A DNA stretch of 64,000 bases from an uncultured bacterium (GTDB lineage: Bacteria > Patescibacteriota > Minisyncoccia > Moranbacterales > UBA2206). The notes below the pieces were generated by a model that saw nothing but the letters and a program-made list of their open reading frames with translations, was not told where the DNA came from and made no database searches. This document shows positions 6,473-60,178 of the stretch, piece by piece (the stretch's first letter is position 1; each line of letters opens with the position of its first letter). Location: NCBI GenBank assembly GCA_903831805.1, contig CAIKZD010000009.1:217939-281938 (forward strand), written 5' to 3'. Made by a program: the position numbers and the translations under genes.

Positions 6473-6585
6473 TTATTTATAAGCCAACATCGGCGCCAGC
6501 GTGAAAGCCACCATCGACAAAACCGCGATGACCGTTATCACCAACCAAACTCTTGCAAATCGTTTGTGACTTTTTCTTGTTCTCA
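6473..6585 (-). CDS. possible 37-aa small membrane protein immediately upstream of ftsB-like gene
   Basis: Manual translation gives MRTRKSHKRFARVWLVITVIAVLSMVAFTLAPMLAYK*. A basic N-terminus is followed by one TM helix. There is no clear SD. Confidence 0.25.
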
Positions 6586-6633
6586 TACTGGGTATTTTAG
6601 CAAATTTTTAGAATTTCGCCAAGAAAAGAATTA

Positions 6634-7218
6634 TTACGTATTTTTTGCCTTTCTTATCTTCTCTGCATAATGTGCTTCGGTTTCTTTTTTCAATTCCGGC
6701 CATTTGGCAATCCACTCTGGTCCGTCTCCGGCCGATTGGATTTCTCCTTCTCCTGTTATTTCAATGCGTATGCAAAAACCGGCCTGATTTTTTTCCAGAT
6801 ATAAAAATTGCTTTTGTGCGTCTGGCAGATTAAGCAGCGCTTCATCGGAAAAATTCGGCCAAGAATATTGCCCGTCACGGATCGGCCTGAGTGGCGTGCC
6901 ATTCGGCGCTTGCACGCTCGCCTTGCTGTGAATGTTAAATCTATAAATCCCAGCTGGCCACTCGATTGTGTCCACTGTGAACCAATCGGGAAACTTTTCA
7001 CTTTCAACCAAGTCCACCGCCTCAATGCCTGAAATCCGATGATTTGGTTCTTTTCGGCTTTCCTCTTCCCTAGCGCGTTCTTGCAAGACGCGCTGATCAT
7101 CATTGTCCGCTGGACCGTTCGGACTCAGCCCGATCCACAGCTGCGCTTCGGACAAGCCGAGCAATTCCACGTTGAGCAAGAATAAATTCTGGTCTTGGAT
7201 TTTGATGAAATTTTGCAT
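6634..7218 (-). CDS. hypothetical protein
   Basis: Complete 194-aa ORF with no recognisable motifs. Confidence 0.5.
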   Translation of the reverse strand: MQNFIKIQDQNLFLLNVELLGLSEAQLWIGLSPNGPADNDDQRVLQERAREEESRKEPNHRISGIEAVDLVESEKFPDWFTVDTIEWPAGIYRFNIHSKASVQAPNGTPLRPIRDGQYSWPNFSDEALLNLPDAQKQFLYLEKNQAGFCIRIEITGEGEIQSAGDGPEWIAKWPELKKETEAHYAEKIRKAKNT

Positions 7219-7224
7219 AAACTT

Positions 7225-7524
7225 TTATACATTGAATCTTTCTTTAATTTTTTTCATCTTCTTCTCAATAGCTGCTTCCACATCTACATCAAAATTAGTA
7301 GCCAATTGTAATAACAAGACTATGCAATCAGAAAAGCCTGATTCCAAAAGCTCTCTATTGACTTCTTCTCGTCCAATCTTGTGATTATATATCTGTGCCG
7401 ACAACTCCCCAAGCTCCTCCAATAGATGTGCCAGAGTCGTATCTGCATCATGCTTTCCCGAATATTGTTTATCAATTTCAGAAATTATATTTTTTGTTTC
7501 TTTTTGCAATTCATTAATTTCCAT
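7225..7524 (-). CDS. small MazG-like nucleotide pyrophosphohydrolase
   Basis: 99 aa with an EExxE-type acidic helix (LAHLLEELGELSAQI), typical of all-alpha NTP-PPase MazG-like proteins. Confidence 0.45.
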   Translation of the reverse strand: MEINELQKETKNIISEIDKQYSGKHDADTTLAHLLEELGELSAQIYNHKIGREEVNRELLESGFSDCIVLLLQLATNFDVDVEAAIEKKMKKIKERFNV

Positions 7525-7560: not shown

Positions 7561-7635
7561 CTATTTCTTCAGCACCGACAAAAAGGCGGTCGAGGGGATG
7601 TTGACGCGGCCGATGGTTTTCATTTTCTTTTTGCC
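7561..7635. repeat. 75-bp direct repeat copy of the lepA 3' end (second copy at 8310..8384, 74/75 identical)
   Basis: The sequence ctatttcttcagcaccgacaaaaaggcggtcgaggggatgttgacgcggccgatggttttcattttctttttgcc recurs at the genuine lepA C-terminus. The two copies bracket the HepT/MNT pair. Confidence 0.85.
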
Positions 7636-7638
7636 ACC

Positions 7639-7983
7639 TTAAATCTTTTCAATGATTTTCAAAATTTGTTTTTTCAATTTAGGAACATCCTTAATGGAAA
7701 TTTTCCAAACCAGCTCCATATCAACGCCGAAATATTCATGGATCAAAATGTCACGCATGCCAGCCATCTTTTTCCAAAAAATCTTCGGGTGCTTCTTGCG
7801 GAAAGAAAGAGGCAAATTTTTCACCGCCTCCCCGATGACCTCCAATCGGCGTAAGGTCGCGTCCTGGATAGTGACATCTTTTGAAAAAGATTTTTCATCC
7901 AAATCAAAAAGATCAATCTCAATTTTATCTATATTATCTAGGATATGTTCCAGAAAAATTTTAGGATCTTTTGGTTTTTTCAT
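7639..7983 (-). CDS. hepT: HepT (DUF86, HEPN) toxin
   Basis: 114 aa with the Rx4HxY HEPN motif (RDILIHEY). It overlaps the MNT gene. Confidence 0.8.
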   Translation of the reverse strand: MKKPKDPKIFLEHILDNIDKIEIDLFDLDEKSFSKDVTIQDATLRRLEVIGEAVKNLPLSFRKKHPKIFWKKMAGMRDILIHEYFGVDMELVWKISIKDVPKLKKQILKIIEKI

Positions 7984-8299
7984 AGATGACTTTTTGTTCT
8001 TTCAAGATGATGTCTTTGAGACGATGATTTAGGCCATTATAAGTCAAGACGTCCACTTTTCTGCCCAATTCTTCTTCAAGATCCAGTTTGAGTCCTACCA
8101 AGTCGAGCAAGGTTTTACTTTTACCCAATTGTACTAGGATATCCACATCGCTGTTTTCTGTTTCTTCCCCTCTGGAAAAGGAACCGAAAAGAGACGCCTT
8201 GATCACTCCTTGGCGCCTTAAAATGGGAATTATTTGTTTTTTAATGGCTAAATTTTCCATGATTTTAGTGTAACAATAAATATACAATCCCGCAATCAA
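7961..8299 (-). CDS. MNT minimal nucleotidyltransferase antitoxin
   Basis: GSxxRGx..DxD motif (LFGSFSRGEETENSDVDILV). TTG start in the ORF track. Confidence 0.8.
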   Translation of the reverse strand: MIAGLYIYCYTKIMENLAIKKQIIPILRRQGVIKASLFGSFSRGEETENSDVDILVQLGKSKTLLDLVGLKLDLEEELGRKVDVLTYNGLNHRLKDIILKEQKVIYEKTKRS

Positions 8300-8309
8300 T
8301 ATTATTACC

Positions 8310-10139
8310 CTATTTCTTCAACACCGACAAAAAGGCGGTCGAGGGGATGTTGACGCGGCCGATGGTTTTCATTTTCTTTTTGCCTTTTTTCTGTTTTTCC
8401 AAAAGTTTTCTTTTGCGAGTGATGTCGCCGCCATAGAGGCCGCTAGTCACATCTTTTCGGAAAGCTTTGATGGTTTCTCTGGCGATGATTTTGGCCCCGA
8501 TGGTGGCTTGCAGAGCGATTTGGAAATTTTGGCGCGGGATGACGTCTTTTAATTTTTCCACAATCCTTTTCCCTTCGCCGTGAGCGTTTTCACGCGGCAC
8601 GATACGCGAAAAAGCGTCCACTTTTTCATCCGCCACCAAGAAATCCAACTTGATGAGATCATAAGCACGATAATCTTCGATTTCATAATTCATCGAAGCA
8701 TAACCGGAAGAAGCACTTTTCAAATCGTCGTGCAAATTGGTCACCACATCAGTCAAGGGACAGCTGAATTTGATGATCATCCGTTCGGCGTCCAGATATT
8801 CCGTATCGCGATACTCAGCCCGGGTGTTGCCCATCACTTCCATGATAGCCCCCAGATAGGACGAGGGTGAGACAATTTCCAACTTGACGAACGGTTCATA
8901 CACTTCTTCAATGACTGATGGATCAGGAAACTCTGAGGGAGAATAGACTTTGATGCGGCCAGGTTTATCTTTGAGTTTGATTTCATATACCACGCTCGGT
9001 GAAGTGATGGTTGGGCTGATTTCAAATTCACGTTCCAAGCGAGATTGGATGATTTCTAAATGCAAGAGTCCCAAAAAGCCGCAACGAAAGCCGCGCCCCA
9101 AGGCCGTGTTAGATTCCGGTTCAAAAACAAAAGCGGCGTCATTTAATTTGAGCTTGTCTAAGGCGTCACGCATGAAATTGTAGTCATCCCCTTCCACCGG
9201 ATAGAAACTGGCATAGACCATCGGTTGCACTTCTTTGTAGCCTGGCAACGGCTCGACGACCGAGTTTTTAATTTTGAAATTAGTAATTGTGTCGCCCACT
9301 CGACAATGTTCCACGCTTTTTAGGCCCGTGGCAATGTAGCCGATTTCACCGGCGGTCAATTTTTCCGCTTTCACCAGCTGCGGCTTGAAATTGCCTACCT
9401 CAATCACATCACTATCAGTTTGGCCGATCATCATCCTGATTTTTTCGTCCGCCCCAATTTCGCCGTCAAAAATCCGCACATAAGCCAAGACTCCTTTATA
9501 TGTATCATATTTCGAATCAAAAATCAGAGCACGGAGAGGTTTGGCCGGATCACCGATGGGTGCCGGGATGATTTTCACAATTCTTTCCAAAAGTTCGGGA
9601 ACGCCCACGCCGGTCTTGCCGGACACTTCCAAAATTTCTTCTTCGGCGCAGCCCAGGAGATGCATGATTTCTTTTTTGACTTTCGGCGCATTGGCGTTGG
9701 GCAGATCGATTTTGTTCACCACTGGAATGATTTCCAAATTATGTTCCAAGGCTTGATAGAGATTGGCCAAGGTCTGTGCTTGCACACCTTTAGTGGCGTC
9801 CACCAGCAAAACCGCCCCGTCCACCGCCGCCAAAGAGCGCGACACTTCATAGCCAAAGTCCACATGTCCCGGCGTATCTATCAAATTGAGAATGTATTCC
9901 CCCTCCCCTGTATTCAGGGGAGGTGTCCCGTAATCGGGACGGAGGGGTTGATAATTCATGCGCACCGGCTGCATCTTAATAGTAATCCCCCGTTCTCGTT
10001 CCAAGTCCATGGTGTCCAGTAGCTGCTCTTTCATTTTGCGCGCCTCAACAGTGCCGGTCATTTCCAACATGCGGTCCGACAAAGTCGACTTACCATGATC
10101 GATATGCGCGATAATGCAAAAATTCCTGATGTTTTTCAT
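8310..10139 (-). CDS. lepA: elongation factor 4 (LepA) GTPase
   Basis: AHIDHGKST G1 motif, DTPGH and NKID motifs, and a LepA C-terminal domain. A repeat-derived loop insertion lies between G1 and G3. Confidence 0.95.
   Translation of the reverse strand: MKNIRNFCIIAHIDHGKSTLSDRMLEMTGTVEARKMKEQLLDTMDLERERGITIKMQPVRMNYQPLRPDYGTPPLNTGEGEYILNLIDTPGHVDFGYEVSRSLAAVDGAVLLVDATKGVQAQTLANLYQALEHNLEIIPVVNKIDLPNANAPKVKKEIMHLLGCAEEEILEVSGKTGVGVPELLERIVKIIPAPIGDPAKPLRALIFDSKYDTYKGVLAYVRIFDGEIGADEKIRMMIGQTDSDVIEVGNFKPQLVKAEKLTAGEIGYIATGLKSVEHCRVGDTITNFKIKNSVVEPLPGYKEVQPMVYASFYPVEGDDYNFMRDALDKLKLNDAAFVFEPESNTALGRGFRCGFLGLLHLEIIQSRLEREFEISPTITSPSVVYEIKLKDKPGRIKVYSPSEFPDPSVIEEVYEPFVKLEIVSPSSYLGAIMEVMGNTRAEYRDTEYLDAERMIIKFSCPLTDVVTNLHDDLKSASSGYASMNYEIEDYRAYDLIKLDFLVADEKVDAFSRIVPRENAHGEGKRIVEKLKDVIPRQNFQIALQATIGAKIIARETIKAFRKDVTSGLYGGDITRKRKLLEKQKKGKKKMKTIGRVNIPSTAFLSVLKK
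9899..9950. repeat. in-frame double-hairpin intragenic element (copy 1 of 3) inside lepA
   Basis: The sequence cctcccctgtattcaggggagg forms a 9-bp stem with a 4-nt loop, and gtcccgtaatcgggac forms a 6-bp stem. Together they encode PLRPDYGTPPLNTGEG. Related copies lie in valS and pheT. Confidence 0.6.
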
Positions 10140-10284: not shown

Positions 10285-10473
10285 ATGACCGGACAACAAC
10301 AAAAAGATAGGAGAAAGGCTCTCGAGGTATTGGATGCTCTGGAAAAAGAAGGTGCAGATGTTACAGCTCTCAGGGAGCTTATTGAAGAAAATGGTAAAGT
10401 AAACTATGGCATCAGTCCAGGACTTATACCATGCACTGCTTTCAATACCATGCTTGAAGATGATGATTACTAA
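10285..10473 (+). CDS. small acidic protein (62 aa)
   Basis: Strong SD (agagggg) 7 nt before the ATG. First gene of a compact promoter-to-terminator cassette. Confidence 0.45.
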   Translation: MTGQQQKDRRKALEVLDALEKEGADVTALRELIEENGKVNYGISPGLIPCTAFNTMLEDDDY

Positions 10474-10489
10474 CAAAGAGGAGGTAGCT

Positions 10490-10699
10490 ATGGATACAAG
10501 CACTTTAGTAATTACTGTTATTGTTATTGTTGTTGTTTGGTTTATTGCTGGGTATGCCGCTGCATGGGGAAGTATACCTGGAAAAGAAAACAATATTCAA
10601 TTGAACTGGAAAAATGTTAAACTTCTCGTCGGCGGGCCAATATCACTTACCTGTGTCGTTGTAAGTAGATTACTTGACATACTTCCAACCATTGATTAA
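10490..10699 (+). CDS. small single-TM membrane protein (69 aa)
   Basis: Near-consensus SD aagaggagg before the ATG at 10490. Translates to MDTSTLVITVIVIVVVWFIAGYAAAWG... The ORF track chose a longer upstream start. Confidence 0.45.
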   Translation: MDTSTLVITVIVIVVVWFIAGYAAAWGSIPGKENNIQLNWKNVKLLVGGPISLTCVVVSRLLDILPTID

Positions 10700-40196: not shown

Positions 40197-40419
40197 GTAT
40201 TTAAAATAATCATTTATTCAAGATACTGTCTATGTATTCTGCTTTTGTTTGAGTTGATAAGTAGAACCTGACATTAAACTGTTTTATAGTGTTACTTGGA
40301 TTAATTTTATCATAGCTTGCGGCTCCCACTAAGGTTGCTTTCTGAGAAAAATCTCCACTTTTAATGGAATTGCGGAACAAAAAATTTAGGAGAGAAAATT
40401 TTGTTTTCCTTATCGTAAT

Positions 40420-41262: not shown

Positions 41263-41286
41263 ATGGCGAATTCGCCGTAATTAAAA
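41263..41286. promoter_or_regulatory. 24-bp near-perfect palindrome (aattatggcgaattcgccgtaatt) in the KilA-N 5' leader; operator-like
   Basis: 22 of 24 positions are symmetric, lying 10 bp upstream of the KilA-N start codon. Confidence 0.35.
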
Positions 41287-41296
41287 AATTTACTTT

Positions 41297-41399
41297 GTCT
41301 AACGTTTCGGCATATCTGATGTTTGCCGTAGCGTAGCGGAGGCAAATATGGGTGGAGGCTCGCCGGAGGCGAACCGCAACCAGATATGCCGTGTTATGT
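41297..41399. repeat. F3 attC-like element copy a (103 bp)
   Basis: Ends GTCTAAC...GTTATGT on the plus strand (ACATAAC...GTTAGAC in gene sense). Inner inverted boxes ggcatatctg / cagatatgcc. Variable centre. Confidence 0.55.
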
Positions 41400-41475
41400 G
41401 ATGTGCATGTTTTACTTTAATCCCGATGGCAATCGGGATTGCTCTAAAAAAGAATTTTAATTTTGTTTTTTTGTT

Positions 41476-44720: not shown

Positions 44721-46241
44721 TTACAAATTTTTCAAATCACTAAGTCCAGCAACGATTTCTTGCTCCAGCGATTCAATCTTTCCCAAAATCACTTTTGGAT
44801 CTTCGTAAACCATTTCATCGTAATCCGTTACTTTGTAGCGATTGATACTCAAATCAAAATCAGCTTTTTCTATATCACTTTTATTAACATAGAAAAATTT
44901 ACTATTGAGCTTGTTTTCGGTTTGGTCTTTTCTTGTTTTCCATTTCGCCACAATATCCGGCAAATCACCCCCGCCGTTGATCTTGCTTCGCTTGTCGTCC
45001 AATGTGTAGCCGTCGGATTGCATATCATAAAACCAAACCTTTTCAGTTTCGCCGCCTTTTACAAATATCAAAATCGCGGTGCTTACTCCAGCGTAGGGCT
45101 TGAATACTCCGCTCGGCATCGAAATAACGCCTTGCAGTTCACACTCATTGATAAGCATCTTGCGCGCTTGCTTGTGGGCATTGCTAGAACCGAACAGCAC
45201 GCCGTCTGGCACAATCACACCGGCTCGTCCTCCGATTTTGAGGGATTTTATAATGGTATTGATAAACAATAATTCCGTTTTTGTCGTAGCGAGTGAGAGC
45301 GATTCGTTGATGTCGCCCTTATCAATACTGCCTTTGAAAGGCGGATTCGCCATGATGCAGTCATAAAAATTATTCTCGTCGTATTTTTTGGAGAGCGTAT
45401 CTTTTTGTTCGATGTTTGGATTGGAGATGCCGTGCATCATCAAGTTCATGAGTCCAATACGCACCATGCTTTCGTCCATGTCATAGCCGTAGAAAGTTTT
45501 TTCTTTGAGATGCGTCCATTGTCGCTCGTCGGTGAGCTTGTCGCCCAGATCGCCACGCGTCAGTCCGTTTTCATCAGTTTTTCTGTGTTCTTTGCTGGTA
45601 TGTGCTGTGAGAATATGCTGATAGGCACCGAGCAAAAATCCGCCTGTACCACAAGCTGGATCACAAATAGTATCGCCCAATTTTGGATCTACGAGTTCAC
45701 AAATAAGTTGAATGATGTGGCGCGGTGTGCGGAATTGGCCGAGCTTGCCGGCGCTCGTGATTTCTGAGAGCAAATATTCGTAGAGATCTCCCTGGGTGTC
45801 TTGAAAACCTTGTCCGGCCGAATCTTGCTTGGCGATTTCTTCAAAAATATCATCAATAATATTCACCGCTTCCACCAAAAGCGACGGCTTGGAAATGATA
45901 AAAACCGCGTTGCCCATGTGTTTGGCAAAGGGACTTTCTTCTTTGCCGATAGTTTTCAGAAATGGAAAAACTTTAGTTTGAATATGTGTCAGCATTTCGC
46001 CACCTTCCATTTGTCTGAAATGGCTCCAGCGCAAATTTTCTTTGTCATTTCCAAAAAGTGACTTGTACGCTTCTCCGGTAAATTCGGCGTCTTGTCTTTT
46101 CTTAATATCCATCTCGTCCAAGCGCTTCATAAAAAGCAAATAGGAAATTTGCTCAATAGCCGTGAGCGGATTGGATATGCCACCGCTCCAAAATTTATCC
46201 CAGAGCCTGCCAATTGATGATTTGAGTGTTGGATTAAGCAT
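44721..46241 (-). CDS. hsdM: Type I R-M N6-adenine DNA methyltransferase
   Basis: HsdM N-domain, AdoMet motif (DPACGTGGFL) and catalytic NPPF. Confidence 0.9.
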   Translation of the reverse strand: MLNPTLKSSIGRLWDKFWSGGISNPLTAIEQISYLLFMKRLDEMDIKKRQDAEFTGEAYKSLFGNDKENLRWSHFRQMEGGEMLTHIQTKVFPFLKTIGKEESPFAKHMGNAVFIISKPSLLVEAVNIIDDIFEEIAKQDSAGQGFQDTQGDLYEYLLSEITSAGKLGQFRTPRHIIQLICELVDPKLGDTICDPACGTGGFLLGAYQHILTAHTSKEHRKTDENGLTRGDLGDKLTDERQWTHLKEKTFYGYDMDESMVRIGLMNLMMHGISNPNIEQKDTLSKKYDENNFYDCIMANPPFKGSIDKGDINESLSLATTKTELLFINTIIKSLKIGGRAGVIVPDGVLFGSSNAHKQARKMLINECELQGVISMPSGVFKPYAGVSTAILIFVKGGETEKVWFYDMQSDGYTLDDKRSKINGGGDLPDIVAKWKTRKDQTENKLNSKFFYVNKSDIEKADFDLSINRYKVTDYDEMVYEDPKVILGKIESLEQEIVAGLSDLKNL

Positions 46242-49065
46242 AATGTAAAATTTTATTAGTAAATGACAAGATTTCCGTTTGCAACTGCGGAGTGAATAGC
46301 CCCAAGAAACCGCGAGCGTGCAATTTGGTAAATGGCTCGCTAACGAGATCTTTCTTTGTCAGTTCACCATTGTTGATAATAAAATCACGAAGTACAATCA
46401 GAAACTGGATTTGATTTGAAGCCAGTGTGTTATGTTCGGCAATAAATTCAGCAAAAGCCTCCGAGACTTTTTCGGAAAAAGTGACGAGTCCGCCAATACC
46501 CATAATGTATTTAATCAAATCCAAAAACTGTACCTTGCGGGCATCATAGGCTTTTTGCAGGTTCTCTTCGGTTGGATAGGGATCATACTCGTTTAGCGTG
46601 TCAGCCAGTTCTTCCACTTCTTCCTGCGTAATATCTGCACCTTGTTTTATTTTCTGCAATATTTTGTTTTCTGCTTCCAATTTTTTCACCAGCGCCTCAA
46701 CTTTTTCACGATATTTTTTGATAGTAATGCGTTCATGCGCCGGACCAAATTTGATAAATTCTTTTTCGCTTGTTATATCGCGTAAATCCAGAGAATCTTG
46801 GTCGGGCTTGATGCCTTCTTCGCGATATTTCATCAATGGAGCGATTTTTTGGATCAGAATTTCTAAGGCATTTTCATCGGCTTTTTCAAGATAGCCATTA
46901 TTCAATATCTCTTCTATCAGTTCTTTCTCTTTGACGACAACATTCACAGACAACGGCAAATCAGACACCATTTCAATAATTACTTCCGCAAGAGTTTTTA
47001 CCTTTTTATCTTGACCATCTTGTTCATCAAGTTTGGCGATGGAATAATATAAAACTTTAAGTTCAAAGCTCATTGCCTTGTAGTCTTCGCCGGTTCGCGT
47101 GCGCATAAGTGGCGCGATTTCCTTTTCTAAAAATAGTTTTTTATCTTCATTAAGTTTTTGCCAAAAGGTTTCATCGACTTTATCAATCTTGCTTTTTGCG
47201 TCCAAAATAACCACATTGTTTGGTGGAAGTTTGGCAATATCTTCTTTTAATTTTTGAATGGTATTCTGTACAAGCTCAGCATTATTTTGCGCTTCAGCCA
47301 GATTGAGTTTTTGTAGTTTAGTTTCAAAAAGACGGACAGGCAGCGGTTTTGATGGCTTATCTATTTTTCCGGTTGGGTTCATTTGAAAATATTCAAAATT
47401 TTCCCAACAATCAATGATAAGGAATTTATCTTTTACCTTGCACCATGGCTTTATTTTCTTAGCTTCCAAAAGTCTTGTTCCTCGCCCGATCATCTGCCAA
47501 AATTTGGTATAAGAAAAAACTGGTTTTACAAAAACAAGATTGACGAGTTCGCGCACATCTATACCAGTATCAAGCATATCCACGCTAATGGCGATGCGCG
47601 GAAAGTCTTTATTAACAAATTGATCGAGCAGACCGCCTTTTCCATAAACACGAGAATCGTCCGAAACGATAACTTTGGCAATATTGCCTTTATGTTCAGG
47701 GTAGAGATCATCAAAAACTTCTTGTAATCTTCGTGCGTGCTTCATCGTCATGGCAAAGAAAATAGTTTTGCCGGGCAGAGTTCCACTTTCGTCTTTTATG
47801 CACGATTCCATAAACTCTTGCACGATAAGCGCGTTCGTTCCTTTGTTGGTTACTTTTTTCTCAATTTCACTGCCATCATAATTTATTTCTGTTGGCTCTT
47901 TGCCGTCGGCAAGTAATTTTTGTTGTTCGGCAATGGTAATATTGTCTTTTCTTATTCCTTCTTTTTGGAATTTGGTGCGAACTTTTAGAACTTCAAAATC
48001 TGAAAGATATGGGGGCTTATTGTTTATCGCTTCCTCGTATGAGTAGGCATAAGTCGGTATGCCGTCTTCACATTCAAAAATACCAAAAGTATTATGCTCA
48101 ATCGCATCTTTTGGCGTAGCAGTTAAACCAAGCTGAACAGAATCAAAATAATCAAAAATATTTTTGTAAACATTGTAGATTGACCTATGACTTTCATCTG
48201 CCACAATCATGTCAAAAAAATGAGGACTAAGCGGACAGTCTTTATCTTCAATGATATTGAGCATTGTCGGATAAGTAGCACAATAAATTCGTCTATCCGT
48301 TACAATGTCATGCTCGCCGACTTTTGGCCAAACCGGAGCGTTTGGTAAAAATTCTTTAAAAGCATCAAGAGCTTGATTTCTAAGTGCGATTCTGTCCACT
48401 AAAAACAAAACTTTTTGCACTTTGTTTGCTCGCATCAACGACTCAATCATTGCCACGCAGGTTCTTGTTTTTCCGGTACCTGTTGCCATTACAAGCAATG
48501 ATTTTCTCTTTCCTTTGTCTAAGTTTTCAAAAACTGAGCGGATAGCCTCGATCTGATATGGTCGTCCAGCAATGTCTTTCTGGATTAATTCTTGGGAAAG
48601 TGGTTTCTCGTTTTTGCGCAAAAACAACATTCTTTCTAAATCTTTTTTTGTTGGAAATCCGTACACTTTGCGGGGTGGATATTTTTCAGTATCCCAAAAA
48701 TAAATATCGTGTCCGTTTGTATAAAAAACGAATGGCATATCCTTACCAGAATTTTTCTGAATATTTTCGGCATATTGACGGGCTTGTTCTTGTCCGACCC
48801 TCGCATCCTTCGAGGTTTTTTTTGCTTCTACAATTGCCAAAGGATAACCACTATCTCCAAGTAAGGCGTAATCAGCAAATTGAAAGCCTTGATATTCGTG
48901 TTCCGGCTCCTTAACCCCTTCTGGCAAGCCAATCCAAATATCAAGCTCGGATGTAACTTGTGCTGGATCATTAACTTTCCAGCCGGCTTTTGCGAGCCTT
49001 CCATCTATAATTTCTTGTCTTGTTTGTGCTTCAGTTTTTGTCATAATTATTTTCAAGTTAAACAA
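46234..49065 (-). CDS. hsdR: Type I R-M restriction subunit (SF2 helicase + nuclease)
   Basis: Typical HsdR N-terminus (TEAQTRQEIID..AGW), Walker A GTGKT and DEAH-box IVADESHRS. 943 aa. Confidence 0.9.
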   Translation of the reverse strand: MFNLKIIMTKTEAQTRQEIIDGRLAKAGWKVNDPAQVTSELDIWIGLPEGVKEPEHEYQGFQFADYALLGDSGYPLAIVEAKKTSKDARVGQEQARQYAENIQKNSGKDMPFVFYTNGHDIYFWDTEKYPPRKVYGFPTKKDLERMLFLRKNEKPLSQELIQKDIAGRPYQIEAIRSVFENLDKGKRKSLLVMATGTGKTRTCVAMIESLMRANKVQKVLFLVDRIALRNQALDAFKEFLPNAPVWPKVGEHDIVTDRRIYCATYPTMLNIIEDKDCPLSPHFFDMIVADESHRSIYNVYKNIFDYFDSVQLGLTATPKDAIEHNTFGIFECEDGIPTYAYSYEEAINNKPPYLSDFEVLKVRTKFQKEGIRKDNITIAEQQKLLADGKEPTEINYDGSEIEKKVTNKGTNALIVQEFMESCIKDESGTLPGKTIFFAMTMKHARRLQEVFDDLYPEHKGNIAKVIVSDDSRVYGKGGLLDQFVNKDFPRIAISVDMLDTGIDVRELVNLVFVKPVFSYTKFWQMIGRGTRLLEAKKIKPWCKVKDKFLIIDCWENFEYFQMNPTGKIDKPSKPLPVRLFETKLQKLNLAEAQNNAELVQNTIQKLKEDIAKLPPNNVVILDAKSKIDKVDETFWQKLNEDKKLFLEKEIAPLMRTRTGEDYKAMSFELKVLYYSIAKLDEQDGQDKKVKTLAEVIIEMVSDLPLSVNVVVKEKELIEEILNNGYLEKADENALEILIQKIAPLMKYREEGIKPDQDSLDLRDITSEKEFIKFGPAHERITIKKYREKVEALVKKLEAENKILQKIKQGADITQEEVEELADTLNEYDPYPTEENLQKAYDARKVQFLDLIKYIMGIGGLVTFSEKVSEAFAEFIAEHNTLASNQIQFLIVLRDFIINNGELTKKDLVSEPFTKLHARGFLGLFTPQLQTEILSFTNKILHYA

Positions 49066-49082: not shown

Positions 49083-49155
49083 TCCCCTTATAAATAAATC
49101 GTTTTCGTAGCGTAGCGGAGAAAACACCTTATACCCCTTTCTAAATAAATAAAAA
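49083..49155. repeat. F2 shared promoter/leader element copy a (immediately 5' of hsdR)
   Basis: ccccttataaataaatcgttttcgtagcgtagcggagaaaacaccttatacccct; near-identical copies lie 5' of the 429-aa gene and the GIY-YIG gene. Confidence 0.5.
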
Positions 49156-49217
49156 ACAAAATTCAAATTCTTTTTTTGAGCTGGGCGATAGCCCAAAAGT
49201 AAAACATGCATTTCACA

Positions 49218-50353: not shown

Positions 50354-50461
50354 AATTATTTTTTTGTTAATTTATTAAAAATTATTATTAGAACGAGTTG
50401 CCGACCGAGCAAAATTGCCAAAAATTCTTTTCAAAATAGATAGGAAATTTTTAGTTTTTTC

Positions 50462-50611
50462 GCCTAACGTTACTCATATCTGAAGTTTTTGTCTTCCTTC
50501 CTTAGTGTAATATATAAAGAAAAAGAAGGCAAAAATTTGGGTGGAAGAAATTTGCACTCCTTATTATTAGTTATTGATGCAAATTTCTGTAACCAGATAT
50601 GAGTTGTTAGA
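50462..50611. repeat. F3 attC-like element copy c (150 bp)
   Basis: GCCTAAC...GTTAGAC terminal boxes. Inner boxes ctcatatctg / cagatatgag are compensatory relative to copies a and d. Confidence 0.55.
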
Positions 50612-50679
50612 CGATGTAAATTTATTTTCTTTTTTAAATCCGCTTTTTATTCTAAATAGATTAAATAAGTTTTTTTGTT

Positions 50680-50724
50680 TTGAATTTTGGGCAGAGGGGT
50701 CAGGGGTGAATGCCCAAAATTCAA
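50680..50724. repeat. F1 hairpin element copy b
   Basis: ttgaattttgggca-gaggggtcaggggtgaa-tgcccaaaattcaa. Confidence 0.6.
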
Positions 50725-50758
50725 AACTCCTTATTACAATTTTTCCGTAACATTTTAT

Positions 50759-52048
50759 TTATTTTTGTTTGTCGGTTAAATTTTGTATCACAGCTTGATT
50801 AACTCTATACATATCCAAAATATTTTTTTCTAATTCGCTTAAATTAGAGATTATATTAATATCGTCTAGGGCATCAAGAGGTTGAGTGATTTGAATAGGA
50901 TTATTGTCACGTGTGCCAATATTTAGCTTTAATAATCCGTTTTCTACATGAGCATCAATTTCGTGCATTGGCCAACGTGTTTGTGCAACTTCTTTTGTGT
51001 TATATTTATGATTTACATCCTCATAGCCAATATATAATGCATCGACTCCAAAGGAGCTTCCGTTTTCACTTTGATATTGTATATACGCAACACGACCGTT
51101 AGAACCTTGGACTGGTTTTGACAATGAAATTTTGTCGTATCCCATGACGATCGCTCTATTTTTTATTACGTCGACATAAAGCTTGCGTCCAATCTCGGTG
51201 CTGATTTTTGAAAGTTCTCTTGCAAGCTGTGCTTCTTCGTGTGAAATGTTTTTCCTAACAGGAGGGGTTAATTTCTCCGACATATCTTCTCTAATTTCTG
51301 AATTGTATTCGAAGGAAAGCATAATATTCTTCGCCTGGTCTCTGAGTGACACACCATAATCTTCTGAGATGAAAGTGTGGCCTCCGTGCGACAAGCTACT
51401 AAACACCTCGGATAAATTATCCACACTTTCCTTATATATTTTCTCCACTTGCTCAATGTTGGATAATTTTTGAAGACTTTTGATATTCATCATTTCTAGG
51501 TCTGCGATTACTATTTTCATATCAACATCGCTCCCTTTTTTTGGAATAACTACAAAAAAGGCATCGAATCTAATTTTGATACCGTAAAGAGCTGCTCTTA
51601 TAAGATCGTGGTGTATATCCTCAAGGGCTTGCACAAAGTTTGTAATTGATTCGATTTTTTCATCTCGACTCTCTTTTATTTTGTTATGTGCAAGGGCGAT
51701 GTTATTGCCAGCATTAAAATCAGTCATTGCGATTTCATTTTTGCCAATTGCTCGAAATGTAGTAGGTATGTGTTTTAATCCAATTATTTTTAATGCACTA
51801 TACACATCAATAGCAACATCACGATTGTAATTACATTCTTCCGCATCATAACCACGAAAATATTTTAGAACTAAATTCATCTCTCTAAAATTTTCGCCTC
51901 GTTCAACACGAGCTACGACACGAGAGATGTTTCCTACATTAGCAAAGCTTAAATTAGGATTATCTATGGGGTCTTCCTCCTTTTTGATTGAAAATTCAGT
52001 TTCCTTGCCACTGCTATGAGAAGCAATTTTGGTTATTCTTTCGAACAT
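50759..52048 (-). CDS. hypothetical protein with weak protein-kinase-like motifs
   Basis: 429 aa. HHDLIRAALYG (HxD catalytic-loop-like) and KIVIADLE (DFG-position-like). Speculative. Confidence 0.45.
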   Translation of the reverse strand: MFERITKIASHSSGKETEFSIKKEEDPIDNPNLSFANVGNISRVVARVERGENFREMNLVLKYFRGYDAEECNYNRDVAIDVYSALKIIGLKHIPTTFRAIGKNEIAMTDFNAGNNIALAHNKIKESRDEKIESITNFVQALEDIHHDLIRAALYGIKIRFDAFFVVIPKKGSDVDMKIVIADLEMMNIKSLQKLSNIEQVEKIYKESVDNLSEVFSSLSHGGHTFISEDYGVSLRDQAKNIMLSFEYNSEIREDMSEKLTPPVRKNISHEEAQLARELSKISTEIGRKLYVDVIKNRAIVMGYDKISLSKPVQGSNGRVAYIQYQSENGSSFGVDALYIGYEDVNHKYNTKEVAQTRWPMHEIDAHVENGLLKLNIGTRDNNPIQITQPLDALDDINIISNLSELEKNILDMYRVNQAVIQNLTDKQK

Positions 52049-52077: not shown

Positions 52078-52185
52078 TCGTTTTCGTAGCCTTAGCGGAG
52101 AAAACACCTTTTTCCCCTCTATAAATAGATAAAAAAAACTTATTTTTCCTTATTATAAAAAGCGAATTTAAAAAAGAAAATAAAT
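52078..52185. repeat. F2 shared promoter/leader element copy b (extended homology to copy c)
   Basis: cgttttcgtagccttagcggagaaaacacc...ataaaaaaaacttatttttccttattataaaaagcgaatttaaaaaagaaaa. Confidence 0.5.
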
Positions 52186-52192
52186 TTATTTC

Positions 52193-52319
52193 GTCTAACG
52201 TTAGGCATATCCGAAGTTTTTCTGTAGCGTAGCGAAGGAAAAATTTGGGAGAGAAAATTTTGCTTTCCTTATTTTATTATAAAGTGCAAAATTTTTGAAC
52301 CGGATATGCCTTGTTATGT
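52193..52319. repeat. F3 attC-like element copy d (127 bp)
   Basis: GTCTAAC...GTTATGT on the plus strand (ACATAAC...GTTAGAC in gene sense). Inner boxes aggcatatccg / cggatatgcct. Confidence 0.55.
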
Positions 52320-52387
52320 GATGTAAAATTCTTTCTTTTTTCTTTTTTTAAATTTGCTTTATAAATGATAAATAAGTTTTTTTGTTT

Positions 52388-52431
52388 TTGATTTTGGGCA
52401 GAGGGGTAAGGGGTGAATGCCCAAAATCAAA
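52388..52431. repeat. F1 hairpin element copy c
   Basis: ttgattttgggca-gaggggtaaggggtgaa-tgcccaaaatcaa, followed by a second G-rich-loop hairpin at 52448..52500. Confidence 0.6.
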
Positions 52432-52471
52432 AACTCCTTATTCTTAAACAAAAAGGCAAAAAGGAAGGGGT

Positions 52472-53992
52472 TTAAGGGGAGGGAATTTTTGCCTTTTTGT
52501 TTTCTTTCACCAATTTACTCATTTTTATTTTTGGAGATATTCCTAACTCAAAACATTTTCTTGCCCACGATTCAATCTTTTGTTTTAAAATTATAGAATT
52601 AATTTCGGATATTTTTTTAGGTAAATTCTTATTTTGGATAACTAACCAAATGCAATAATTTTTAAAATCAATATCAATCTTTTTTGTGTTCGCTTTTTTG
52701 CCGATGAGTTCTAATGTATTGTTTGCTTGATCACAGACATAACCTAATTTTTGAGCAGTTCCAAATTTTACGGCATAAACAGTTTCGCCCTTTTTTGAAT
52801 CCCACGCCTCAACTAGCGTTCCAGCTTTAACCTTAATAATTGAAAAGTTTTTATCGGCATCAGAATATCCATGTTCTTTTAGACTTTTATTAAAATCACC
52901 TTCTATGCCAGTAATTTCAAGTAAGTCATTTTCAACTTCATCCAGATCAATGCTATCGATGTATTCGTTTAATTGATCCATATAGTCCTCATTAAATTTC
53001 ATCCACTTACCTTGCGTTAGAAGGACATTTTGATCATCAATAATATAATCTATCGATTCTTTTACAGTTTTAGAAAACGGCTTAGCATCTTCCTTGATTA
53101 TATGAACCCTTATACTGAGAATTTGCTCCTTGGGAATGGAATTCGTTGATATAAAAGTATTTAATCTATCGATTGTAAGTTCTTCGAATTCAGCCGATGT
53201 AAAACTGTCTAAGGAAAATTTATATTTTTCCTGTCCAGAGAAAATAAAATCAATTCCGATAAGCTCATGACTATTTGAAGTGAAATCTGTGCTATCTTTT
53301 GAGGCAATAATCTCTTCTGCTAATTTATTTTCATACCCAACTGTTATAGGGGATGTATCAAGAATGATTGTTCGCGGTAATTTAAATAATTCAGGAGATT
53401 CATAAACTTTAATTATTGATTCTAAAAATTCTGGCAATGCTTCTTTCTCAACTAGTGGACTTAGTAATGAAGAAGAACCAAATTTACCTGACTTGCCAAA
53501 ATTTTCTATAAAATCTTTAGAAATAGATGATTGTAAATAATCGATAGATTCACCACTCTCAATATCCAGTTGGCTATTTTTTGTATAACTTTTTATTTCT
53601 TTTTTCTTTTTTCCCGCGAATTTTTTTGACGATTTTTGTCTGATATCTTTTTGATTCGCAATTCTTTTGGCTATATGAATGCCAAAATCATGATCGCAAA
53701 ATTGTCGTAGATAAAAATGCGATTTCCCATAGCTTAATGCAAAACAATATTTTTCATTTTCCCAAATATAAGCGCAAAAGTAGATTCTATTTTCGGGCTT
53801 ATCTTCGTTGAAAAAATCTTTGTATGTTTCTGCCCACGGAATTTGAATCGGATCAATATCTTTGGAAAAATAAAAATCACCTTTCCAGCCTTTTTCTTCG
53901 CTCGAGTTAATATTTTTAAGTCCTAATGATTCAAATTTATCTTTTAAATCATTGACTTTGTCTTTTGGAATTTTAAAAATATTTAGCTTCAT
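52472..53992 (-). CDS. hypothetical 506-aa protein, last gene of the type IIS R-M operon (resembles the sporadically distributed TIGR04141-like family from memory; unverified)
   Basis: No catalytic motif recognised. Separated by a 6-bp gap from the REase candidate. Confidence 0.5.
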   Translation of the reverse strand: MKLNIFKIPKDKVNDLKDKFESLGLKNINSSEEKGWKGDFYFSKDIDPIQIPWAETYKDFFNEDKPENRIYFCAYIWENEKYCFALSYGKSHFYLRQFCDHDFGIHIAKRIANQKDIRQKSSKKFAGKKKKEIKSYTKNSQLDIESGESIDYLQSSISKDFIENFGKSGKFGSSSLLSPLVEKEALPEFLESIIKVYESPELFKLPRTIILDTSPITVGYENKLAEEIIASKDSTDFTSNSHELIGIDFIFSGQEKYKFSLDSFTSAEFEELTIDRLNTFISTNSIPKEQILSIRVHIIKEDAKPFSKTVKESIDYIIDDQNVLLTQGKWMKFNEDYMDQLNEYIDSIDLDEVENDLLEITGIEGDFNKSLKEHGYSDADKNFSIIKVKAGTLVEAWDSKKGETVYAVKFGTAQKLGYVCDQANNTLELIGKKANTKKIDIDFKNYCIWLVIQNKNLPKKISEINSIILKQKIESWARKCFELGISPKIKMSKLVKENKKAKIPSP

Positions 53993-59119: not shown

Positions 59120-59245
59120 TCCCCTTATAAATAAATCGTTTTCGTAGCGGAGCGGAGAAAACACCTTATACCCCTATATAAATAGATAAAAAAACTTATT
59201 TTTCCTTATTATTAAAAAAGCAAATTTAAAAAAAGAAAAAAGAAA
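59120..59245. repeat. F2 shared promoter/leader element copy c
   Basis: ccccttataaataaatcgttttcgtagcggagcggagaaaacaccttatacccct...ataaaaaaacttatttttccttattattaaaaaagcaaatttaaaaaaag. Confidence 0.5.
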
Positions 59246-59282
59246 GAATTTTATTTCACATAACTCTTTATATACGAACTGA

Positions 59283-59341: not shown

Positions 59342-60178
59342 ATGAATGAAAGTTATTATCCAAGTCAAGATCCAATTTTAAAATTGAAGCAGGAAATGAA
59401 ATTGCGGAAGTTTAGTCCGAAAACCGTCAAGTCCTATTTATATTATATCACGGATTTACTGAAGCAATCAAACAAAAATCCCAAAACTGTCAATACGGAC
59501 GATATTCGGGGATATTTAGAATATCTAGCTGACAAAAATTTCGCTGCTTCAACCCTAAATGGTGCCTATAGTGCTTTCAAACTCTACTTTGAAAAAATCC
59601 TTTATCGTCATTTCTTTGCCAATATTCCACGCGCCAAATGCCCCAAAAAATTGCCGGAAACCCTCACCAAAGAAGAGGTGAAAAAAATTCTAGGCACGAT
59701 TCAGAACGTAAAACACAAGCTGTTACTAGGATTGATGTATTCATCAGGACTGCGAGTTTCGGAAGTTGTGAATTGCAAGGTCAAAGATTTGGATTTTGAA
59801 AGCAAATTGATGCGGGTGCGCCAAGCCAAGGGAGCTAAGGACAGAATGACTATCTTATCAGAAAAAATGATTGTTGTTTTGCAAAGATATTTAAAGAATA
59901 AAAAATCTGACGACTATGTTTTCGAAAGCGACCGTGGTGGCAAACTGACTGAAAGAACGGCTCAGAAAATTTTTTGCGACGCCTTGCAAAAATCTGGCAT
60001 CAAAAAACCGGCTACTTGCCACAGTTTGCGCCATTCTTTTGCCACTCACCTCTTGGAATCCGGCACCAGCATCCGCTATATCCAAGAACTTCTTGGCCAT
60101 GCACGCCTCGAGACCACGCAAATTTACACCAAAGTGGCCAACACGAACCTGCAAACTATCAAAAGTCCATTAGATTAG
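59342..60178 (+). CDS. tyrosine site-specific recombinase (Xer/IntI-like)
   Basis: R..H.LRHSFATHLLESG...IQELLGHARLETTQIYTKV catalytic R-H-R-Y region. The KVKDLDF..RVRQAKGAKDR patch and the KSPLD tail resemble integron integrases, but the IntI-specific extra domain is absent. 278 aa. Confidence 0.85.
   Translation: MNESYYPSQDPILKLKQEMKLRKFSPKTVKSYLYYITDLLKQSNKNPKTVNTDDIRGYLEYLADKNFAASTLNGAYSAFKLYFEKILYRHFFANIPRAKCPKKLPETLTKEEVKKILGTIQNVKHKLLLGLMYSSGLRVSEVVNCKVKDLDFESKLMRVRQAKGAKDRMTILSEKMIVVLQRYLKNKKSDDYVFESDRGGKLTERTAQKIFCDALQKSGIKKPATCHSLRHSFATHLLESGTSIRYIQELLGHARLETTQIYTKVANTNLQTIKSPLD

Follow-up and report, generated by a model that had tools for sequence, protein, structure and literature searches.

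The ways in which bare toxin-antitoxin (TA) pairs travel within a chromosome or from one to another are poorly understood, and their label as mobile derives mostly from their patchy distribution. [quoted passage not shown] In these cases, which are mostly from naturally competent species, the duplications are long and variable, the repeats are unique in the genome, and mobility genes are lacking (PMC2853133; PMC3874152). Flanking repeats are significantly more frequent at RM units than at control genes; some repeats extend into the 3′ end of the upstream gene, as with a 46-bp repeat that shares 15 bp with HI0105 (PMC2853133). The duplication was tentatively attributed to DNA double-strand breakage by the cargo (PMC2853133). 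Long variable target duplications have also been reported for the Mycoplasma elements IS1630 (19–26 bp; PMC2853133, Figure 1 legend) and IS1634.

The locus described here lies in a 64-kb stretch of DNA from an uncultivated CPR bacterium (hereafter, the window). It contains an intact lepA gene (EF4; 8310–10139, minus strand) that encodes 609 amino acids with GTP_EFTU, EFG_C, and LepA_C domains. The LepA_C match extends to residue 608, and the protein shares 82–85% identity with LepA of related Moraniibacteriota. A preliminary description of this DNA had reported that the last 75 bp of lepA are duplicated at 7561–7635, and both the coordinates and the identity (74/75) were confirmed. Copy A (8310–8384, minus strand) is the functional end of lepA, comprising the last 24 codons and the TAG, and the repeat stops exactly at this stop codon. 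Copy B (7561–7635, minus strand) is a displaced, non-functional lepA tail that follows the stop codon of HepT in frame. The sole mismatch (G at position 7572, A at 8321) corresponds to CTG versus TTG on the coding strand, leucine in both. The edges of the repeat are sharp, with matches at 5 of the 10 nt past the stop codon and at 2 of the 10 nt on the opposite side. With up to three mismatches allowed, only these two copies were detected in the 64 kb (none expected, from 100 shuffles); the 75-mer is thus not the dispersed, widespread repeat that would have spoken against an insertion. The downstream gene p194 weakly matches lepA at the repeat boundary with its 3′ end (AAGGCAAAAA); this match is of low complexity and was judged to be due to chance.

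The identical arrangement, including the mismatch, was found in the conspecific contigs L001, L003, L004, and L009, which stem from several independent metagenome assemblies. Contig breaks at the repeat initially hinted at a population polymorphism. In the Logan contigs, the break falls exactly 31 nt from the mismatch; this distance reflects a k-mer effect, and the polymorphism was therefore rejected.

Two genes, both intact, occupy the 674 nt between the repeat copies, and the whole unit comprises 749 bp. The putative antitoxin MNT (minimal nucleotidyltransferase; 7961–8260, minus strand, 99 amino acids) matches PF18765 (E 1.8e-18) and PF01909 (E 1.6e-15), both above the cut-offs, and its GSx10DxD motif reads GSFSRGEETENSDVD in the translation. 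The putative toxin HepT (HEPN RNase; 7639–7983, minus strand, 114 amino acids) matches PF01934 (E 1.3e-26, 93 bits) and carries the R-x4-H motif RDILIH (in RDILIHEY), of which R77 and H82 are invariant across 30 homologs. The two ORFs overlap by 23 nt. Judged by their domains, their motifs, and the adjacent, overlapping ORFs, the genes are predicted to be a HepT/MNT toxin-antitoxin pair, in which MNT would neutralise the toxicity of HepT by AMPylation, in agreement with the earlier assignment of both genes to the interval between the copies. Known HepT/MNT (HEPN/MNT, type VII) systems have the same domains, motifs (Rx4-6H; GSx10DxD), gene order, and overlapping ORFs. The genes of the window do not differ from them, and the interest of the locus lies in the mode of insertion alone. 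A left spacer of 49 nt (8261–8309, minus strand) separates the MNT ATG from copy A and contains promoter-like elements (TTGCGG...TACACT / TAAAAT), while the right spacer, from the HepT stop to copy B (7636–7638, minus strand), is just the trinucleotide GGT. When five related cassettes were aligned, similarity started at the −35-like TTGC, approximately 40 nt before the ATG, and no similarity was detected outside the stretch from this −35 box to the HepT stop.

[quoted passage not shown] The definition of Furuta et al. (2010) asks for a complete selfish unit inside the insert without linked mobility genes, an insert below 20 kb, a duplication above 30 bp, and a repeat that is not multi-copy; here, a complete TA unit of 749 bp without linked mobility genes is associated with a 75-bp repeat that occurs twice within the 64 kb. 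Like the RM units, the cassette is thus a small addiction-type unit with long repeats that are specific to the site and variable in length. In contrast to the RM units, the cargo is HepT/MNT with an RNase toxin, carried by a CPR bacterium that has not been cultivated; since the toxin does not cleave DNA, the published suggestion of DNA breakage by the cargo cannot apply. Furthermore, the RM cases were defined by empty-site comparisons within a species, whereas for the window the sites with a single lepA tail all come from other species.

The region downstream of copy B contains a MazG-like gene (7225–7524, minus strand, 99 amino acids; marginal PF03819 match, phrog_715) and p194 (6634–7218, minus strand), a conserved hypothetical protein of Patescibacteria. 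Conserved synteny restarts at 6473–6625 (minus strand) with the native promoter TTGGCG-17-TAAAAT (6594–6622) and a 37-amino-acid membrane ORF (6473–6586), and the ORFs around the unit are lepA, the MazG-like gene, p194, DivIC, PpiC, and MurJ. Related species have a single lepA tail, with the native promoter and the small membrane ORF directly after the lepA stop; their order (lepA, promoter, small ORF, DivIC, PpiC) is read as ancestral, and the sequence after copy B has no counterpart in them. No homolog of the MazG-like gene adjoins lepA in the relatives L011–L030, and p194 is likewise missing from this slot. Its homologs elsewhere are found in unrelated, varied contexts.

The comparison with relatives that the preliminary description had proposed as a check therefore returned single lepA tails in other species, but no conspecific empty site. 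Exact searches with the MazG-like protein, with HepT, and with LepA did not reveal an arrangement of lepA followed by the MazG-like gene, and all conspecific contigs found carry the insertion. The contexts of the p194 homologs, which are located elsewhere, did not contain an empty-site allele, nor was a donor allele found. A search for an empty allele in the abundant L091 species via the HNH neighbour was also negative, every long contig having the TA pair. The term target duplication therefore rests on the more distant relatives. None of these has the duplicate without the TA genes, a combination that would have contradicted the proposed insertion.

The closest relative, L101 (LepA 85%), carries a homologous TA pair directly after lepA. 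Identities between the window and L101 were 83% for MNT, 74% for HepT, 85% for LepA, 75% for MurJ, 66% for PpiC, and 62% for DivIC. HepT of the window is 74–75% identical throughout, to L101 as well as to cassettes from unrelated contexts, so that vertical inheritance from a common ancestor with L101 is no more than a possibility. In L101 the TA pair is located downstream of the native promoter and in the window upstream of it, which argues that the two are not simply one insertion. Set against L101, copy B together with the MazG-like gene and p194 may just as well be the added DNA.

MNT-HepT cassettes from other sites were surveyed for flanking direct repeats scoring 19 or more. Such repeats, 19–330 nt long and specific to their context, flanked 20 of 67 non-redundant cassettes from unrelated contexts, compared to 1/215 displaced and 0/676 lepA-locus controls (Fisher p about 5e-13), where the controls represent ordinary neighbouring DNA and not other recently acquired genes. 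Two-copy local duplications of 19–206 nt account for 14 of the 20 cases. The other six cases have repeats of the array type, of which at least two are attC-like (L164, L184), and belong to a different mechanism. The repeats around homologous cassettes differ in sequence and length and are built from the local sequence of each site: cassettes that are 72–74% identical at the nucleotide level have 56-nt repeats in L091 and 28–33-nt repeats in L093. Repeats of gene tails, ending at or near the stop codon, were found for lepA, a 474-amino-acid ORF (L163), a 194-amino-acid ORF (L178), and nusB (L149, 131 nt). The identities within repeat pairs (78 to 100%) fit copies that were identical at birth and decayed later. 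The right junction was tight in 7/20 cases, with 0–7 nt after the HepT stop. Overall, the flanking-repeat pattern is general for the MNT-HepT cassette family, with roughly a fifth to a third of the cassettes being repeat-flanked in hosts of 27 to 67% GC. As two of four p194 genes also had flanking repeats of about 20 nt, specificity of these repeats for TA genes is not established.

Several explanations for the duplicated lepA tail were weighed against each other. In integrative elements of gene 3′ ends, such as the tRNA/tmRNA islands, the insert lies between direct repeats, and one copy restores the end of the target gene, as is the case for lepA. ICESt1 and the CIMEs at fda belong to these elements, and CIMEs are devoid of their own integrase. 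By analogy, the 75-mer would be an att site, and a circular element would have brought its own copy of the lepA tail by means of a tyrosine or serine recombinase that acted in trans or was encoded on a since-deleted island, leaving a CIME-like remnant between attL and attR. The topology is exactly that of attL-element-attR, the genome does encode a tyrosine recombinase, and the cassette of L097 adjoins a tRNA 3′ end that is repeated three times with 73-nt spacing, 2 kb from a tyrosine recombinase. However, no recombinase was found in or beside the 749-bp unit, and the only tyrosine recombinase of the window (59342–60178, PF00589), the sole result of the search for such an enzyme suggested earlier, is 51 kb distant and similar to the one Xer-like enzyme of other CPR loci. 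Of 75 lepA loci in other species, none had a second lepA tail within 4 kb; this tail is therefore not an att site in recurrent use. The repeat core, as an attP-like copy, had no match in viral contigs; JGI metagenome contigs gave no match either, a weak negative as this collection also missed the contigs of the species itself. Evidence of a cognate element was not found among these data. Moreover, the same cassette family is located at many unrelated sites, with repeats of unrelated sequence and differing length and without shared ends, and the insert ends tightly at the promoter on one side and at the stop codon on the other, a result that random internal deletion of an island would rarely give. 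Site-specific integration is thus considered quite improbable. The earlier reading as an insertion with target duplication fits the structure and the complete lepA C-terminus, but the comparison with site-specific elements of tRNA or tmRNA 3′ ends that accompanied it is unsupported.

Even less credit, amounting to a very slight probability, is given to a non-autonomous (MITE-like) transposon moved in trans with long variable duplications, or to an integron-type cassette. The former could draw on the duplications documented for IS1630 (19–26 bp; PMC2853133), but transposon ends on the cassettes were ruled out, as terminal inverted repeats and conserved ends are lacking among copies that are 70–84% identical, and a transposase is absent. 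The latter is suggested by cassettes in attC arrays (L164, L184; probably also L150, L141, and L145), in which a compact promoter and TA pair lie between similar repeats as they do here. In contrast to integron attC sites, the lepA repeat is native coding sequence in two copies, without R″/R′ boxes. Its DNA fold gave z values of 0 to −0.7 on either strand, compared to −2 to −3.4 for the attC-type repeats of L164 and L184, and identity as an attC or hairpin element was ruled out by this lack of a hairpin. An attC-like structured repeat family does occur elsewhere in the window, with no copy near lepA.

An alternative that is unlikely, though less so than these, is that the TA pair is old in its slot and that the recent arrival consists of the 75-nt lepA tail, the MazG-like gene, and p194 downstream of HepT. 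Homology-facilitated illegitimate recombination with a conspecific lepA-MazG-like-p194 allele would have introduced this segment, and the TA pair would be bracketed merely by position. The TA pair of L101, which occupies the slot without the MazG-like gene, p194, or the duplicate, is in favor of this order, as are the divergence of the TA genes from L101, similar to that of neighbouring housekeeping genes, and the absence of the MazG-like gene and p194 from the slot in all relatives together with the varied contexts of p194 elsewhere. On the other hand, positional coincidence would not predict that flanking repeats recur for this TA family in unrelated contexts, and the HepT of L101 is no closer than HepTs from such contexts. 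In addition, the native promoter separates the position of the TA pair in L101 from that in the window, and the lepA-MazG-like allele was not found.

From the anatomy of the unit, the intact lepA and TA genes, the lack of integrase, transposase, attC, and terminal repeats, and the recurrence of the pattern, we infer that a cassette of ~674 nt (its own promoter, MNT, and HepT) was probably inserted at the lepA stop by insertion with long target duplication and without a dedicated recombinase. A recombination event would have duplicated the last 75 nt of lepA, with copy A keeping lepA whole and copy B left as a dead remnant past HepT. The most likely route, to which we assign a little less than an even chance overall, combines one homologous and one illegitimate joint. 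Donor DNA would come from a close relative that already had the TA pair directly after lepA, as in L101, and may have entered as a circle of lepA tail and TA pair or as a linear fragment via transformation. The donor would pair with the lepA tail of the recipient, followed by illegitimate joining just after HepT. This route accounts for the identity ending exactly at the stop codon, where the slot alleles start to differ. The tight right junctions in 7/20 surveyed cases are not accounted for by random illegitimate joining and count against it. A more doubtful alternative within the same class invokes a break with a wide stagger, at which the cassette would have been captured before fill-in.

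Homology-facilitated illegitimate recombination, reportedly known from the work of de Vries and Wackernagel in 2002 on natural transformation, resembles the proposed route in that a homologous anchor and an illegitimate joint yield sharp junctions without an element-encoded enzyme. In its classical form it usually deletes recipient DNA, and duplication is not its usual outcome. DNA uptake is presumed for many CPR bacteria; to our knowledge, this type of recombination has not been shown in them.

After insertion of the cassette, post-segregational killing by stable HepT would counter-select loss through recombination between the repeats, which would explain why repeat-flanked structures are so frequent around addiction modules. 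It is possible, and proposed here only tentatively, that a shared, uncharacterised insertion process with long, variable duplications accounts for the spread of HepT-MNT cassettes and perhaps of addiction modules in general, RM units among them. Such a process would act across phyla, with stop codons of conserved genes as frequent targets and without an element-encoded recombinase. As the HepT toxin is an RNase, the process cannot need DNA cleavage by the cargo. It may correspond to a host or DNA-uptake recombination pathway, the products of which would be kept visible by post-segregational killing.

A long target duplication that is specific to its site is a concrete footprint of TA insertion, in this case at the essential gene lepA. 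With an RNase toxin as the cargo, the explanation would move to features in common with RM units, such as addiction or the route of DNA entry, which renders the question testable. The flanking-repeat signature also provides a simple way to spot recent TA acquisitions in metagenome-assembled genomes. For the window, an empty-site junction would read as the lepA tail directly joined to AAGAATGATAATTT, and a junction from an excised circle or a tandem amplification as HepT-GGT-75-mer-GGTAATAATATTG. A different junction, absent from the window, was observed at L007/L008 in two assemblies that possibly derive from one sample: the cassette, together with the final 19 nt of the lepA tail, is fused to a GC-rich glycogen phosphorylase-like fragment, which was taken as a probable chimera.

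The lepA gene (10139-8310, minus strand) encodes 609 amino acids, with the LepA_C domain matched up to the last residues. Its final 75 nt including the stop codon (copy A, 8384-8310, GGCAAAAAG...GAAGAAATAG) recur downstream as copy B (7635-7561) with 74/75 identity, the sole difference being TTG versus CTG, which is Leu either way. Copy A is followed by a 49-nt spacer, the MNT antitoxin gene (8260-7961; PF18765/PF01909; GSFSRGEETENSDVD), the HepT toxin gene (7983-7639; PF01934; RDILIHEY; 23-nt overlap with MNT) and the 3-nt spacer GGT before copy B, all on the minus strand. The repeat edges are sharp, with approximately chance identity directly past the stop codon and directly upstream of GGCAAAAAG. 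No third copy was found within the 64-kb window with up to three mismatches permitted. Several independent assemblies yielded contigs of this species with the same arrangement, mismatch included (L001, L003, L004, L009), and the duplication of the lepA 3' end around MNT-HepT reported in the preliminary description was confirmed.

Copy B lies in frame with HepT directly past the TAA stop of the latter, and the only substitution in the copy is synonymous. The HepT/copy B junction (within 7561-7641, minus) creates AAGGTGG 10 nt upstream of an ATG inside copy B, and thus a Shine-Dalgarno-like sequence for a 20-codon ORF encoding the C-terminal peptide of LepA, MKTIGRVNIPSTAFLSVLKK; this could easily be a coincidence. 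In two assemblies (a SAMEA6872759 scaffold and an ERZ27313059 MEGAHIT contig; L007:5560-5680 and L008:1-100), a GC-rich fragment that is absent from the window was fused to the cassette plus the final 19 nt of the lepA tail. Read as its reverse complement, the fragment codes for a glycogen-phosphorylase motif (WPQKFNNKTNGVTPRRW). Both contigs stop at the identical base, 26 nt into copy B; the fusion represents either a chimera or an infrequent second context for the cassette.

The host is a Candidatus Moraniibacteriota (CPR) bacterium, and in related genomes the gene order is MurJ, lepA, a small membrane ORF, DivIC and PpiC. In the related loci L013 and L019, a promoter-like TTGGCT-17-TAAAAT followed by the small ORF begins 0-3 nt past the lepA stop codon. 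In the window, the native promoter and small ORF (6622-6473) are displaced from lepA by about 1.7 kb, so this lineage gained MNT, HepT, copy B, the MazG-like gene (7524-7225, minus) and p194, a hypothetical protein gene (7218-6634, minus). None of 75 lepA loci of other species carried a second copy of its own lepA tail within 4 kb. The closest relative found (L101; LepA 85% identical) has a homologous MNT-HepT pair (83% and 74%; L101:3684-4360) straight after lepA in the lepA-DivIC slot, with neither the duplication nor the MazG-like gene nor p194. That pair is preceded by the native promoter and followed by the small membrane ORF, on the opposite side of the promoter from the window's, and, judged from this position, appears to rely on the promoter of the host. 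It may stem from an independent insertion event in this intergenic region or else reflect an ancestral state, later rearranged. On the other side of lepA, two small ORFs of 62 and 69 amino acids (10285-10699, plus strand) without Pfam or PHROG match lie on the opposite strand and widen the MurJ-lepA gap to about 670 nt, versus about 250 nt in L101; they may be another small insertion.

Direct repeats of local sequence likewise flanked homologous cassettes at unrelated sites. The cassette of L091, between def and an HNH gene, has repeats of 56 nt (86% identical, spacing 783), and that of L093 repeats of 28-33 nt (spacing 773) which begin straight after the upstream ORF stop. A broader survey drew on 80 metagenome loci whose HepT homologs are more distant. 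Each MNT-HepT pair with sufficient flank was scored for the best direct match of the 300 nt preceding MNT to the 300 nt that follow HepT. At a score of at least 19, repeats flanked 20/67 non-redundant cassettes, compared to 1/215 windows of identical layout shifted to other positions in these loci and 0/676 windows in lepA loci (Fisher p about 5e-13). Array-type repeats in multiple copies account for six of these 20 (L141, L145, L150 twice, L164, L184). By their attC boxes (…CCTAAC… / …GTTAGGC) and strong hairpins, L164 and L184 are classed as integron-type cassettes, in which TA genes are known to occur. In the remaining 14, a local sequence of 19-206 nt is present twice, with 78-100% identity between the copies and a locus GC of 31 to 65%; this spread of identities fits copies that were identical at birth and decayed later. 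Several duplicate the tail of the upstream gene, with copy A intact and copy B displaced. The repeat ends exactly with TAG in lepA, straddles the original stop of a 474-aa ORF (L163), reaches 1 nt past the TAA of a 194-aa ORF (L178) and ends a few codons short of the stop in nusB (L149:405-535 and 1309-1439; 131 nt, 95% identical). The latter is a second essential-gene tail handled like that of lepA. As such repeats recur at MNT-HepT cassettes in other contexts, the lepA-tail duplication exemplifies a footprint that is found repeatedly around this cassette family.

The intact nusB protein ends ...KKSSPA*, the displaced fragment ...KKSIKI*. L150:322-3021 holds two different MNT-HepT cassettes with at least four copies of a ~139-nt repeat between them; the repeat contains ATGTCCC...GGGACAT inverted motifs, and the region resembles an array of cassettes in a genome of low GC (30%). 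In L097 (3506-3681 and 6275-7180), a homologous cassette lies directly past a tRNA 3' end. Two degenerate copies of that end follow it at 73-nt spacing, resembling stacked att scars; about 2 kb downstream, a tyrosine recombinase is encoded together with a Phd/YefM-like antitoxin.

An insertion that regenerates the lepA end, as proposed in the preliminary description, is supported by these data; the accompanying suggestion of site-specific targeting, comparable to that of tRNA 3' ends, is not. No recombinase was found in or near the unit. The window's sole tyrosine recombinase (59342-60178) is probably Xer-like, since it shares 41-44% identity with the one enzyme of this type seen in other CPR loci. 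The repeat core did not occur in viral contigs; a metagenome scan was likewise negative, but it also missed this species. As an attC-type site the 75-mer was rejected: its hairpin propensity is ordinary on both strands (DNA fold, z 0 to -0.7), versus z -2 to -3.4 for the real attC-type repeats of the survey. Five related cassettes (70-84% nucleotide identity) could be aligned solely between a shared -35-like TTGC, some 40 nt ahead of the start of MNT, and the HepT stop, with neither terminal inverted repeats nor similarity outside this interval.

For an insertion of this anatomy and recurrence, lacking a dedicated recombination apparatus, we infer as the favoured route a recombination between alleles of a variable slot starting at the lepA stop codon, with one joint homologous and the other illegitimate. 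A donor carrying the TA pair straight after lepA, as L101 does, would supply the lepA tail and TA pair as a circle or as a linear fragment that the cell imports; the incoming DNA would pair with the recipient's lepA tail, the other end being joined just past HepT. Such a route would explain why identity stops exactly at the stop codon in 3/4 gene-tail cases and why the element has no conserved ends, but it leaves the very tight right junctions unaccounted for, and no donor allele was observed. The main alternative is a true staggered-break duplication, a mechanism of the same class. Under either route, post-segregational killing by HepT would counter loss via recombination between the repeats and so help to explain their enrichment around addiction modules. 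The TA pair may have arrived before or after the MazG-like gene with p194.

A process specific to TA pairs is challenged by p194, a conserved Patescibacteria family found in unrelated contexts. Flanking repeats of about 20 nt, exceeding anything in the 676 control windows, occurred in 2/4 contexts, so that target duplication may not be restricted to TA cassettes. The repeats flank the homologs L190:3874-4461 (21/21) and L104:5001-5588 (19/20), and the context differed in every genome examined.

'Insertion with long target duplication' was defined for RM units (Nobusato et al., 2000; Furuta et al., 2010, PMC2853133). Their direct target duplications are long and variable (over 30 bp, up to about 420 bp), unique in the genome and in some cases overlap the 3' end of a gene; mobility genes are not linked, the species are mostly naturally competent, and flanking repeats are significantly commoner than around control genes (PMC2853133). 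The mechanism is unknown and was tentatively ascribed to a common RM property, e.g., double-strand breakage (PMC2853133). A review of RM and TA systems by Mruk and Kobayashi assigns this insertion mode to RM only (PMC3874152), and no description for TA pairs was found in the full-text literature searched. The window shares all features by which Furuta et al. recognised RM cases except a same-species empty site: lepA without the cassette was not found for this species, nor was an empty site for that of L091. We file the locus as a new case, with TA cargo and a CPR host, of this known, mechanistically unexplained class. The single locus is moderately interesting, the family-wide pattern more so.

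The window also contains a second local duplication, 74-nt direct repeats (50662-50735 and 52369-52442; 93% identical, spacing 1707) that are themselves hairpin and terminator-like. They flank a single 429-aa ORF (50759-52048) without Pfam match, inside a defence-like island with a type I HsdR (46234-49065) and DUF6119 (52472-53992); a 44-nt repeat pair (89%) lies nearby (49113-49156 and 52093-52136). Furthermore, a structured interspersed element of ~150 nt occurs on the minus strand at 52161-52326, 50440-50620 and 41283-41410, with fragments at 40380-40413 and 59188-59264, one of them just upstream of the tyrosine recombinase gene. It is also present in L014, L016, L104, L110 and L093 (at least five copies); in the L093 array, small ORFs are separated by element copies. 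The ends of the element are conserved (TACATC..TAACAA and CTAACGTTAGRCGAAA), and its structure comprises an outer stem (GGCATATCCGG/CCGGATATGCC) plus two inner ones, with compensatory changes in 10/22 predicted pairs, a DNA fold z of -2.1 and no Rfam match. Its architecture is attC-like (R''...TAAC / R' GTTAGRC), and it may mark integron-like cassette sites in Moraniibacteriota.
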